Source: Bacteriovoracia bacterium
Lineage (GTDB): Bacteria > Bdellovibrionota > Bacteriovoracia > Bacteriovoracales > Bacteriovoracaceae
Reading direction: 5' to 3'
Assembly: GCA_046570105.1 (NCBI GenBank)
Contig: JBKHVI010000003.1
Location: forward strand, 1-64,000
DNA length: 64,000 nucleotides
Shown here one piece after another: positions 15,001-18,000 of this stretch; positions within the stretch are counted from its first letter, which is position 1; each line of letters starts with the position of its first letter. A program made the position numbers.

Positions 15001-18000
15001 CTGTGACGACGCCTACTGCGGCACCAATCGCGGCACCGGCACCAGCACCTTTGGCAATTTGTTTTCCTTTACCGCTTTTTAAATATTCATCAGCATCAGC
15101 AATGCACTGATCAACATCATTTTGAGCGGCTTCCTTGCCGACACTCTTAAGTTTGTCGTTGGGATAAAGCGTAGGCTTTGAAGCGCAGGCCACTAAGGTA
15201 ACCAGTAAGAGCCAAGATATTTTCATGTAAGCCTCCCGTGTGGTACCCATTATAGCCTATGGAGAAGAAGAATTACATCACACCTCAAGGCCAACGAGCT
15301 TTGTCTGATGAACTACAAGAGCTTCTGCGCGTTGAAAGACCCAAAGTCTGTGAGTTGGTGCAGTGGGCGGCGGGCAATGGTGATCGCTCGGAAAATGCGG
15401 ATTATCAGTATGGAAAAAAACGTCTGCGCGAAATAGATCGACGAGTACGCTTTCTCACTTCGCGCTTAGATGCCGCAGTGGTGGTTGATCCCGTCACAAT
15501 CAAGAGTGAAAAAGTACAATTTGGCGCCACCGTCAAAACTTTGGACGAAGAAGGGCGTGAAAAAACTTGGTCAATTGTTGGAATCGATGAAATTGACACA
15601 AAGCGGGGCCGGATTAGTTGGCAGTCCCCTATTGGTCGTGCTCTCATTGGTAAAAGTATTGGTGATGAAGTTGAGATCGTGGGGCCGCAAGGTTCGCACT
15701 CAATCGAAATCATCGCAATTGAGTATCTGCCTTTAAACTAGAGAGGTGTTGTTATGAAAATTTTTGCTTTAATTCTCACTCTGTTCTCTTTTTCTGCCTT
15801 TGCCTCATTCAATGATGTTGAGTGTAGCGGAACTGTACGCAACGGCGACCGTGCTCGTGTCGAAGTTGAGCGCGGCTTTGGTGGTTCAATGCGTGATGCT
15901 CGCGTCGTGATCTTTGGTGCCCGTGGAACAAATCCACGAGTCTTCAATTACCGCATTTTCCAAATTCGTAAATTTGGCACCATGCTTGAATTCGTAGGCG
16001 ACAGCAACTTCCGTCTAGAAGTGGATCTTTTTCCAGACCAATCACCACGCTGGGGCCGTACTTACCGCGGTCAGATGCGCGACATGTTTAATGTCTCGTG
16101 CCGCTTTCCTAACGCTCAGTAGTTTGGCATGAAGAGATTTCGTCGCGTCTACATCGAAATCTCTAATATCTGTAATCTTCAATGCACGTTCTGTCCTGAG
16201 GTAGAGAGACCCAAAGAAGTTCTCTCTACCTCACAATTTCAAAATATTTTAAAGCAAGTTTCCCCTCATACAGATGAAGTGTGTCTGCATCTCATGGGAG
16301 AGCCCACCGCTCACCCAGATTTCGAAAAAATCCTGCAAATTTGCACCGAAGAAAAAATGCCAGTACAACTTACGACGAATGGCACATTGTTGGGAAAATT
16401 CTCCACCGATTTGTTTTTTAAATCGAGTGTTCGTCAGATTAATTTTTCACTGCACAGTTTTAAAGATAATTTTCCCGGTAAAGATTGGCGTCCTTACCTC
16501 CACGATCTCTTGGCCTTCACTCGACTCGCCTTAAAAGAAAAGCCCGAACTTTATATTAATTTTCGTCTCTGGAATTTACCCAATCCCACCGGTGCTCGCG
16601 ACGAGAACCAAGACTTCATCGATGAGATCTGTGGCTTCTTTGATGTAGGCATTAATGAAAGAGTTAATGTGGCCCATCGTCGTTCAAAGAACATTGTAGG
16701 TCGTGCTTACTTCCATTTTGATACGCGCTTTGAATGGCCCAGTCTCACAGCTCCCTTCATCAGTGATAAAGGTTTTTGCCATGCTCTTTCACAACACGTC
16801 GGCATTCATGCTGATGGAAGAGTGGTCGCCTGCTGTTTAGATAAAGAAGCCGGCAACACCTTAGGTAATGTTTTTGAACAGGACTTCGCCGAAATCTTGC
16901 AACTTGAGGCCACCGAAAAGCTTCACCAGGGCCTCGTTAATGGCCAACTTTTAAGTCCCCTTTGTCAGCGTTGCAGCTTCATTTCTCGCTTCAAAAAATC
17001 GCCCCTACCAGTCACAAACAAGGCCGCCCCCACACAAAATTAAAAAAGGGGGTTGCATTACGGAAAACTTACGGTATAGTTGTTTTTACGGAAACATTAC
17101 GGAAGGAAAACGTATGGCCCTCACTAAAAAGCAAAAAGACGTTCTCGACTACATCACAGAGTTTGTGCGCGAAAAAGGTTTCGCTCCTACTCAGAAAGAG
17201 ATTCAGGCCTACTTTGGCTTTAAGTCACTGGGCTCAGTTCAAGACTATATTAAATATCTCACTCAAGGTGGATACCTCAATAACGACTCACACTCAGTTC
17301 GCGGGCTTACTCCGGCCCATATGTCCTCCCAGGGAACCGAAGAGATTCCTCTCCTAGGTAGTATCGCAGCCGGGGTGCCCATTGAGGCGATCGAAAACAC
17401 AGACACTGTTGCTGTCCCGCAAGCAATGATCAAAAAAGGCATGCACTATGCTTTGAAGGTCAAAGGCGAAAGTATGATTGAAGACGGCATCTTGAGTGGT
17501 GACATCGCTGTCATTCGTCACCAAACCCAAGCTGATAACGGTCAGATCGTTGTCGCAGTGATTGATAATGAAACAACATTGAAGCGTTACTTTAAAAAAG
17601 CTAAGCAGGTTGAGTTGCACCCAGCTAACAGCACGATGACTCCTATCATTCTCAAAGACCGCGAAGTTGAAATTCGCGGCGTGATGGTAGGACTTTTACG
17701 AGTTTATTAATTTTTTCCCTAGAATCTTTTTTAAATCGTATAGATTCTAGGCGCCAAGGACAGAAAGCTGAGACGTACTCATGTACGTCGCAAGCTTGAA
17801 GGACGAAGGCAACGACGAAGATAACGATTTAAAACAGATTCTAACTTTTTTGTCATGGAGGACAAATGAGCACACACACAAAACAGTCTTCGTTCGATGT
17901 ATCTTCATTCAATGACCTTGGCACTCGTCTCTGCTCGCAAATCTCTGAACGCTACGAAGTCGATCAGCGTCTCGCATCGGAAATGGCCTGGGATCTTTTG

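Follow-up and report, generated by a model that had tools for sequence, protein, structure and literature searches.

A period-11 direct repeat as the probable LexA operator of Bacteriovoracaceae, with related repeats in much of Bdellovibrionota

In a Bacteriovoracia bacterium, lexA and its promoter lie within a 64-kb window (the whole stretch of DNA that was analysed), and the features read there are listed in Table 1. The LexA protein scores 191 bits against the TIGR00498 profile (cut-off 111) over residues 2–196, and E. coli LexA aligns to it without gaps across helices 2–3. RecA-dependent self-cleavage is predicted from the intact Ala86-Gly87 bond, Ser120 and Lys157. Upstream of the gene stand two exact copies of a direct repeat, TTACGG-N5-TTACGG, confirming the two copies claimed by an earlier note on this DNA. 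On a matrix made from the sites of relatives, box 1 scores 23.8 bits and box 2 scores 25.6 bits. Box 2 spans the inferred transcription start and reaches up to the ribosome site. A scan for consensus promoters missed the one at lexA because its −35 hexamer matches at only three of six positions; most relatives have a TTGA-type −35, with TTGAnn directly preceding TACG in 100 of 128 family lexA promoters. An Rfam search of positions 16900–18600 returned nothing real. Among the differences listed, contigs of four public runs (from four studies) show no change inside either box, and one public-run contig differs at 40 places across 811 bases with no listed change in either box. With up to two mismatches allowed, the window holds 6 sites where 2.24 are expected, a number that alone is not beyond chance.

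Table 1. The lexA promoter and gene: positions in the window and the basis of each assignment
Feature	Position	Strand	Basis or remark
Putative −35 hexamer TTGCAT	17053..17058	+	Read from sequence; abuts box 1
Operator box 1, TTACGG-N5-TTACGG (predicted)	17058..17074	+	Exact match; fills the −35/−10 spacer; 40 bases before the lexA ATG
Putative −10 hexamer TATAGT	17075..17080	+	Inferred from sequence; 16-base spacer
Operator box 2, TTACGG-N5-TTACGG (predicted)	17086..17102	+	Exact match; 12 bases before the lexA ATG
Likely ribosome binding site AAGGA	17103..17107	+	Inferred from sequence
lexA, full-length repressor, 198 aa	17114..17710	+	TIGR00498 profile match and likeness to solved LexA structures
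Recognition helix 3, residues 38–45 (SLGSVQDY)	17225..17248	+	Ungapped alignment to E. coli LexA
Asp44 codon in recognition helix 3	17243–17245	+	Equals E. coli Glu45 by ungapped alignment
Self-cleavage bond Ala86-Gly87	17369..17374	+	Columns invariant with E. coli, Bacillus and Sinorhizobium LexA
Catalytic Ser120 (17471–17473) and Lys157 (17582–17584)	17471..17584	+	Invariant columns in all 99 rows of the phylum alignment

Where else in the genome does the box occur? The whole genome contains eight sites with at most one mismatch, four intergenic and four within ORFs. The intergenic sites are the two at lexA, one before recA (C18:26196) and one before umuD (C65:2605); the repeated scan thus agrees with the earlier claim that these are the only ones. 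A scoring matrix of 56 distinct sites of relatives, from which this genome was left out, finds only five sites above 18 bits, and five shuffles gave 0–2. The fifth site, absent from the earlier note, lies about 10 bases before dinB (C9:34725). All five precede SOS genes: lexA (twice), recA, umuDC and dinB. We therefore add dinB to the predicted LexA regulon, membership being judged by sequence. The orientation of the site relative to the gene differs, forward at lexA and reverse at recA and dinB, as is expected for a repressor. Matrix sites below 16 bits, including C52:16484 inside prfB, were rejected, being no commoner than in shuffles.

The box is conserved before lexA nearly throughout Bacteriovoracaceae. 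A LexA query matched 129 of the 151 genomes searched, and 130 family lexA loci were fetched, of which 129 were parsed (L130, without an intact start, was dropped). Exact TACG-N7-TACG lies on the coding strand within 250 bases upstream in 118 of the 129 promoters, and a copy with at most one mismatch lies on either strand in 125. The four promoters without a site comprise one that is N-masked, one whose upstream DNA is 4 bases long and two that belong to divergent LexAs. The background is 7 of 2238 upstream regions of the genome under study, and 4 of the 7 are at SOS loci. The earlier description of the box as family-wide is thus nearly right for lexA, but the box is not special to Bacteriovoracaceae, since other Bdellovibrionota families have period-11 direct repeats before lexA too. 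Promoter layout differs between LexAs with Asp and with another residue at the position of Asp44. A second box is typical of Asp-type lexA promoters, and in 65 of 73 non-Asp promoters the last box lies 25–33 bases before the start. A lexA-dinB operon is present at 45 of 77 non-Asp loci and at 0 of 52 Asp loci. One LexA clade holds these proteins together with those of named Bacteriovorax, Halobacteriovorax and Bacteriovoracaceae records, in support of the family name.

The half-site TACG[G/C] ends in G or C, and both kinds of box occur before recA. In the main Asp clade, recA was found in 29 of 30 genomes, one locus having no upstream DNA; a G box precedes recA in 27 of the 28 evaluable genomes, on the opposite strand and about 85–135 bases upstream, and in three of four more (30 of 32 together). 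A C box lies upstream of recA in all nine evaluable single-LexA non-Asp genomes, twice with one mismatch. The statement that recA belongs to the regulon, made earlier from ten of ten promoters, therefore holds in the two main clades. It fails in the divergent Asp sub-clade, where recA has no G box in any of nine single-LexA genomes, one of which has an exact C/T site. Where a genome has both an Asp-type and an Arg/Gln-type LexA, the recA box is C-type (6/6); the pairing of each LexA with its box in such genomes is something that we infer. Predicted LexA control of recA is thus common in Bacteriovoracaceae, not universal. The gene dinB was found in 24 of 30 genomes. Among the 14 Asp-type dinB loci, eight have their own G box, three share the lexA boxes divergently and three have none; at non-Asp loci dinB is directly behind lexA in 10 of 10.

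No full-length family lexA was detected in 16 family genomes, although PF01726 was found in two. Fifteen of the 16 have upstream DNA for recA. An exact recA box is missing from nine of these, including three genomes in 1–2 contigs, and is kept in six, all of them drafts of 20–420 contigs in which lexA may be unassembled. Box and lexA may tend to go missing together. The six genomes that keep the box would also suit a different binder, such as a response regulator of the winged-helix type or an activator of the damage response, acting through direct repeats of 11 bp. Proteins of the OmpR/PhoB class do use such repeats, and a period of 11 adjoining a −35 hexamer would suit them. However, the boxes occupy the promoter spacer and the start site, and they are seen in both orientations. 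The half-site also varies with the type of LexA helix across the phylum, and the Bdellovibrio repeat (see below) contains the TTAC that later papers cite as LexA-bound. Binding by another regulator is therefore very improbable. As expected of an SOS box, lexA, recA and the genes of error-prone polymerases share a conserved dyad that overlaps elements of their promoters. The repeat is very probably the LexA operator, bound head to tail with a period of 11 and repressing lexA, recA, dinB and umuDC.

Is the direct repeat only apparent? Words of TACG in the same direction and 11 apart are found in 118 of 128 family promoters, and the inward arrangement of the E. coli CTGT-N8-ACAG inverted repeat is found in only 1 of 128. 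The half-site hexamer (T.CG.A) is two changes away from its own reverse complement, so LexA could conceivably read the box as a symmetric dimer on a degenerate palindrome, T.CG.A-N5-T.CG.A. This would accommodate the 38 hexamer pairs with a self-palindromic half, which are ambiguous in direction, and the four pairs that are true inverted repeats. It would also make both inverted classes as frequent as the direct class, whereas the hexamer pairs at period 11 in the family comprise 132 direct, 4 inverted-outward and 0 inverted-inward. Moreover, the G/C change affects both halves at positions related as in a direct repeat. A symmetric dimer on such a palindrome is improbable, and the direct repeat is real even though its half-site is nearly its own reverse complement. 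Tandem binding would not be the sole mode, given that true inverted sites occur in the divergent Asp sub-clade (TACGGA-N5-TCCGTA in L069 and L075; L098 is also inverted). Linker length was rejected as a discriminator between tandem and palindromic types, being 8–54 residues in tandem types and 9–12 in E. coli and the palindromic clade.

The earlier note had proposed that the last base of the half-site co-varies with one residue of the recognition helix. The pairing of Asp with G and of Arg, Lys or Thr with C is upheld in the larger sample. Asp-type promoters (n = 52) comprise 46 G, 1 C, 4 ties and 1 without a call, and non-Asp promoters (n = 77) comprise 67 C, 0 G and 10 without a call. Counted by half-site, Asp goes with 133 G, 23 T, 9 C and 4 A; Arg, Lys, Thr, Ala or Gln goes with 140 C, 7 T and 0 G. 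The exceptions among Asp LexAs are one C/T box (L047) and four ties or T-type boxes. Within the family this co-variation amounts to a single event. In a family tree built without the helix columns (128 rows; the truncated L129 was left out), one branch splits Asp from non-Asp LexAs and provides one independent pair. The Asp rows are one side of a weakly supported branch (30/94), so that the G/C change may have gone in either direction. The wing motif, the promoter layout and the lexA-dinB operon change on the same branch, and the base stays C whether the residue is Arg, Lys, Gln, Ala, Thr or, outside the family, Asn. All of this would fit a real operator whose residue–base link merely hitch-hikes on one old split, with another helix or wing residue setting G or C.

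Several observations speak against hitch-hiking. Thliveris and Mount (1992) reportedly found that Glu45 of E. coli LexA reads the outermost C-G pair. The LexA under study shares the architecture of E. coli LexA, and the complementary strand of its half-site, (C/G)CGTA, can be aligned with E. coli CTGTA, with an acidic residue 45 and an outer C in both; Asp with C is thus what a Glu45 model predicts. Glu45 is described as a DNA-contacting residue of helix III (PMC3091678), and the substitution E45K is reported to abolish specific binding of LexA to the recA box (bioRxiv 2020.07.14.201889). The pairing of an acidic residue with G recurs in other lineages. In a phylum tree of 99 rows the acidic residue changes eight times, and the seven independent pairs divide into 4.5 that agree with the prediction, 0 that oppose it and 2.5 without a difference (median p 0.0625). 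Outside the family, each of the 34 half-sites called alongside Asp or Glu has G (6 of them are from E. coli and Ralstonia); Arg is accompanied by C in 14 of 16, His by A in 15 of 22, and Asn by C in 52 of 58, with 12 named rows picked by a C pattern. Two rows of the palindromic clade that changed from Asp to Gly (L384 and L389) have lost the G. Against the code, rows with Gly, Thr, His and Gln also occur with G in the phylum comparison. Since C also goes with Ala, Gln and Asn, a rule that a basic residue reads G is not required. Hitch-hiking on one split is unlikely, if far from negligible. The residue–base code is plausible and makes chemical sense yet falls short of proof, and the phylum-wide test is only suggestive.

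How far does the box reach outside Bacteriovoracaceae? TIGR00498 has a match in 138 of the 161 phylum genomes, and 55 lexA loci were fetched from 54 of the 109 matching genomes that do not belong to the family. A period-11 direct repeat is present at 30 of the 55 loci (16 families), plus one doubtful call, with the half-sites TTACGC, TTACAY, GTACG (GTACGR) and GTTCG (GTTCGG). Another 16 loci have (C)CATAC-N4-GTATG(G), a 16-bp palindrome with the geometry of the E. coli box, and 8 have nothing. The same operator architecture with other half-sites thus appears to run through much of Bdellovibrionota and to be common to many predatory bacteria, and what had been taken for a box of Bacteriovoracaceae belongs, as one variant, to a period-11 family that spans the phylum, Bdellovibrio included. 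When named genomes were scanned for the pattern of the −35-linked C variant, at least 120 loci matched, with titles for 80. Among the 120 matches listed, 66 have lexA downstream and at least 11 have a RecA-like first ORF; also among the matches listed, the variant precedes lexA in five records of Desulfuromonadales and two bins of Acidobacteria. The five genomes of these two groups that were checked have one convincing site each, before lexA. A polymerase-like gene visibly follows at four of the five loci, and at the fifth the contig ends. Second exact sites in the Bdellovibrio-genus and Desulfuromonadales genomes were not counted towards a regulon, being about as frequent as those of a reversed-pattern control. 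The direct-repeat LexAs group apart from those of E. coli, Bacillus, Sinorhizobium and the palindromic clade (97/95, and only 71/97 without the helix columns); Sinorhizobium is the single alphaproteobacterial sequence in the tree, so this grouping alone does not establish an independent origin.

The phylum-wide repeat bears on the LexA box of Bdellovibrio bacteriovorus, which is cited as TTAC-N3-GTAA from Campoy et al. 2005 (PMC3323433, PMC8565304) and is referred to as the shortest LexA palindrome. Bdellovibrio-type lexA loci found by protein search have TTAC-N7-TTAC in 11 of 11 cases (10 exact) and the exact palindrome in 6 of 11. A further 47 loci of this type came from the pattern scan, in which the repeat is present by construction; the palindrome is exact in 22, has one mismatch in 6 and has at least two in 19. 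The period-11 repeat is better conserved in these promoters than the palindrome is. In the genus g114, placed together with named Bdellovibrio records, 5 of 5 genomes have TTAC-N7-TTAC-N3-GTAA-N7-GTAA as the promoter sequence of the imuA-imuB-dnaE2 cassette. (The cassette was found there through dnaE2, an ImuA-like query having missed it.) One strand of this promoter holds an exact direct repeat; in 4 of 5 genomes the opposite strand holds another, with two mismatches, and the palindrome lies where the two head-to-head boxes meet. The simplest reading suggests that the published palindrome is the junction of two tandem operators that overlap at the outer base. LexA boxes in colicin promoters overlap by one base. 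Two LexA dimers are reported to bind the overlapping boxes there. Against a junction stands the experimental basis of the 2005 work. Within 1480 bases before recA, none of nine g114 genomes has a box, which agrees with the title of that paper. In the genus g76, box pairs lie between pgpA and a cinA-like gene, before recA, in 4 of 4 genomes.

Direct-repeat LexA boxes are already known. For example, the alphaproteobacterial box is GTTC-N7-GTTC (PMC3323433, PMC8565304, PMC3091678), likewise a period-11 direct repeat that is read by a canonical LexA and described as regulating lexA and recA. It differs in its half-site (GTTC/GAAC) and recognition helix (SKSGIHRL), which here are TACG[G/C] and SLGSVQDY. 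In Balneolaeota the box is a TTACAY direct repeat with a period of 13, reported as EMSA-validated and as controlling lexA, recA and polymerases IV and V (PMC7739468). The TTAC-type half-sites and the regulon of lexA, recA and polymerases resemble those found here; the period, the half-site and the phylum do not, and the two systems are set apart by the description of the box rather than by LexA sequence. Several origins of tandem LexA recognition are already stated in that work. The published B. bacteriovorus box shares the TTAC core, and its LexA belongs to the same phylum and a related group, but the lexA promoter described here has no TTAC-N3-GTAA palindrome. No description of the TTACGG-N5-TTACGG box was found in the literature searched; subscription journals lie mostly outside it, and related papers or supplements there might list some sites. 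What is new, on that footing, is the period-11 TACG[G/C] variant.

How might LexA act at such a box? Repression by LexA and its cleavage when triggered by RecA are established SOS biology. Binding, repression, base contact and tandem geometry would, as we infer them, fit together as follows. A LexA dimer would sit on two head-to-tail half-sites that are one helical turn apart on the same face of the helix. Placed across the −35/−10 spacer or the transcription start of lexA, recA, dinB and umuDC, it would block RNA polymerase. Activated RecA would lead LexA to cleave itself at Ala86-Gly87, and these genes would be released. Residue 44 would face the outermost base, an acidic residue going with C (G on the TACG strand) and other residues mostly with G. 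One DNA-binding domain would be placed as in E. coli, and the other would be turned by half a turn on a flexible linker. Because the hexamer is nearly palindromic, this half-turn would be an easy change. The symmetry of T.CG.A would also keep the centre-to-centre distance the same for either facing of a domain, and this may account for the few inverted sites.

Compared with the earlier note, the box is broader, the statistics of co-evolution are weaker and the consequence for Bdellovibrio is more interesting. Taken together, the results allow a joint reading, to which we give an even chance. A large LexA lineage of Bdellovibrionota, which would have spread with mutagenesis cassettes into Desulfuromonadales and Acidobacteria, may bind period-11 tandem operators independently of Alphaproteobacteria. 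The B. bacteriovorus TTAC-N3-GTAA would then be not an operator but the one-base overlap of two tandem operators, and residue 45 would carry a code for the outer base (C for acidic residues, T for His, G for others). The near-palindromic half-site would let one domain flip, such that natural pairs within the phylum would capture the switch from palindrome to tandem repeat.

What are the implications for the biology of these bacteria? First, the results supply an SOS motif that can be used in Bacteriovorax, Halobacteriovorax and most other Bdellovibrionota. Second, recA and dinB are under predicted LexA control in most Bacteriovoracaceae, though not in Bdellovibrio. Third, a testable correction is offered for the cited shortest LexA palindrome. 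The phylum has similar half-sites in both geometries, variants in single-residue specificity and genomes with two LexAs that differ in specificity; how a LexA dimer with two-fold symmetry took to direct repeats is thus a question directly testable in culturable, harmless hosts.

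Which genes besides lexA, recA and umuDC may answer to LexA in the source genome? First, a fifth predicted LexA operator is found at dinB. The dinB start codon is 6 bases past a perfect TATAAT, so placed that the transcript is likely leaderless; rho is divergent from dinB at a distance of 228 bases. Second, the umuDC box is common to umuDC and a divergent 215-aa gene (49 bases). This gene has no NCBIfam match and may be an additional SOS gene.

Features at and around the SOS genes of the source genome (window, the 64,000-base stretch; C, contig; L, fetched locus)
Feature	Position	Location or strand
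Fifth predicted operator	C9:34725 (L291:1726-1743)	Strand opposite dinB; covers dinB spacer and -10
215-aa gene	C65:1909-2556 (L293:910-1557)	Divergent from umuDC
Radical SAM/SPASM-like gene	Window 16129-17043	Immediately 5' of lexA promoter
Stretch of about 130 bases with two inverted repeats	Window 17711-17842	Directly 3' of lexA stop

For the Radical SAM/SPASM-like gene that precedes lexA, no curated family reached its cut-off. The inverted-repeat stretch on the other side of lexA is replaced by 26–28 different bases in contigs from two other runs, occurs once in the genome and has no Rfam match; it could be a REP-like sequence or a small mobile element. Further along, an intergenic segment (window 18312-18345) holds four tandem copies of the 8-base unit GTTTTGGA.

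Direct-repeat boxes extend beyond the family. The TTACGC repeat is found at lexA in Desulfuromonadales and in Acidobacteria bins (L183, L191, L198, L218, L222, L223, L229; L447-L449, L454, L455), whose LexAs nest within Bdellovibrionota. Most of the loci checked have a polymerase-like gene downstream of lexA. A mutagenesis cassette acquired by transfer is the likely origin. The lexA and promoter of L212, from a bin titled Streptomyces, are of Bdellovibrio type; this contig is probably mis-binned. Four Bdellovibrionota lexA promoters (L139, L145, L168, L385) carry an alpha-like GTTCG direct repeat, also of period 11. In a second Bdellovibrionota LexA clade, with the helix AVGTVQDH (L142, L144, L147, L152, L155, L157, L158, L164, L379, L380, L382-L384, L386, L389, L392), the lexA start coincides with or is spanned by a palindrome of 16 bp, CCATAC-N4-GTATGG, the outer C being absent in two Asp-to-Gly rows. 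A half-site similar to GTATGG, arranged as a direct repeat, occurs at the family paralogues L081, L083, L087 and L111.

Control of recA may also vary. In genus g76 (L349, L355, L361, L366), paired direct-repeat boxes lie between pgpA and a cinA-like gene, 5' of recA; LexA may thus control recA in this genus, though not in genus g114. Within the family, no family-type lexA was found in three near-complete genomes (G044, G085, G110), where recA lacks the box; in place of the family type, G044 carries two divergent LexA-like genes. Six other family genomes (G007, G017, G063, G072, G097, G119) encode both an Asp-type and an Arg/Gln-type LexA, each with its own box variant. Because the recA box is of the C type in 6/6, the Asp-type paralogue may control a separate regulon.
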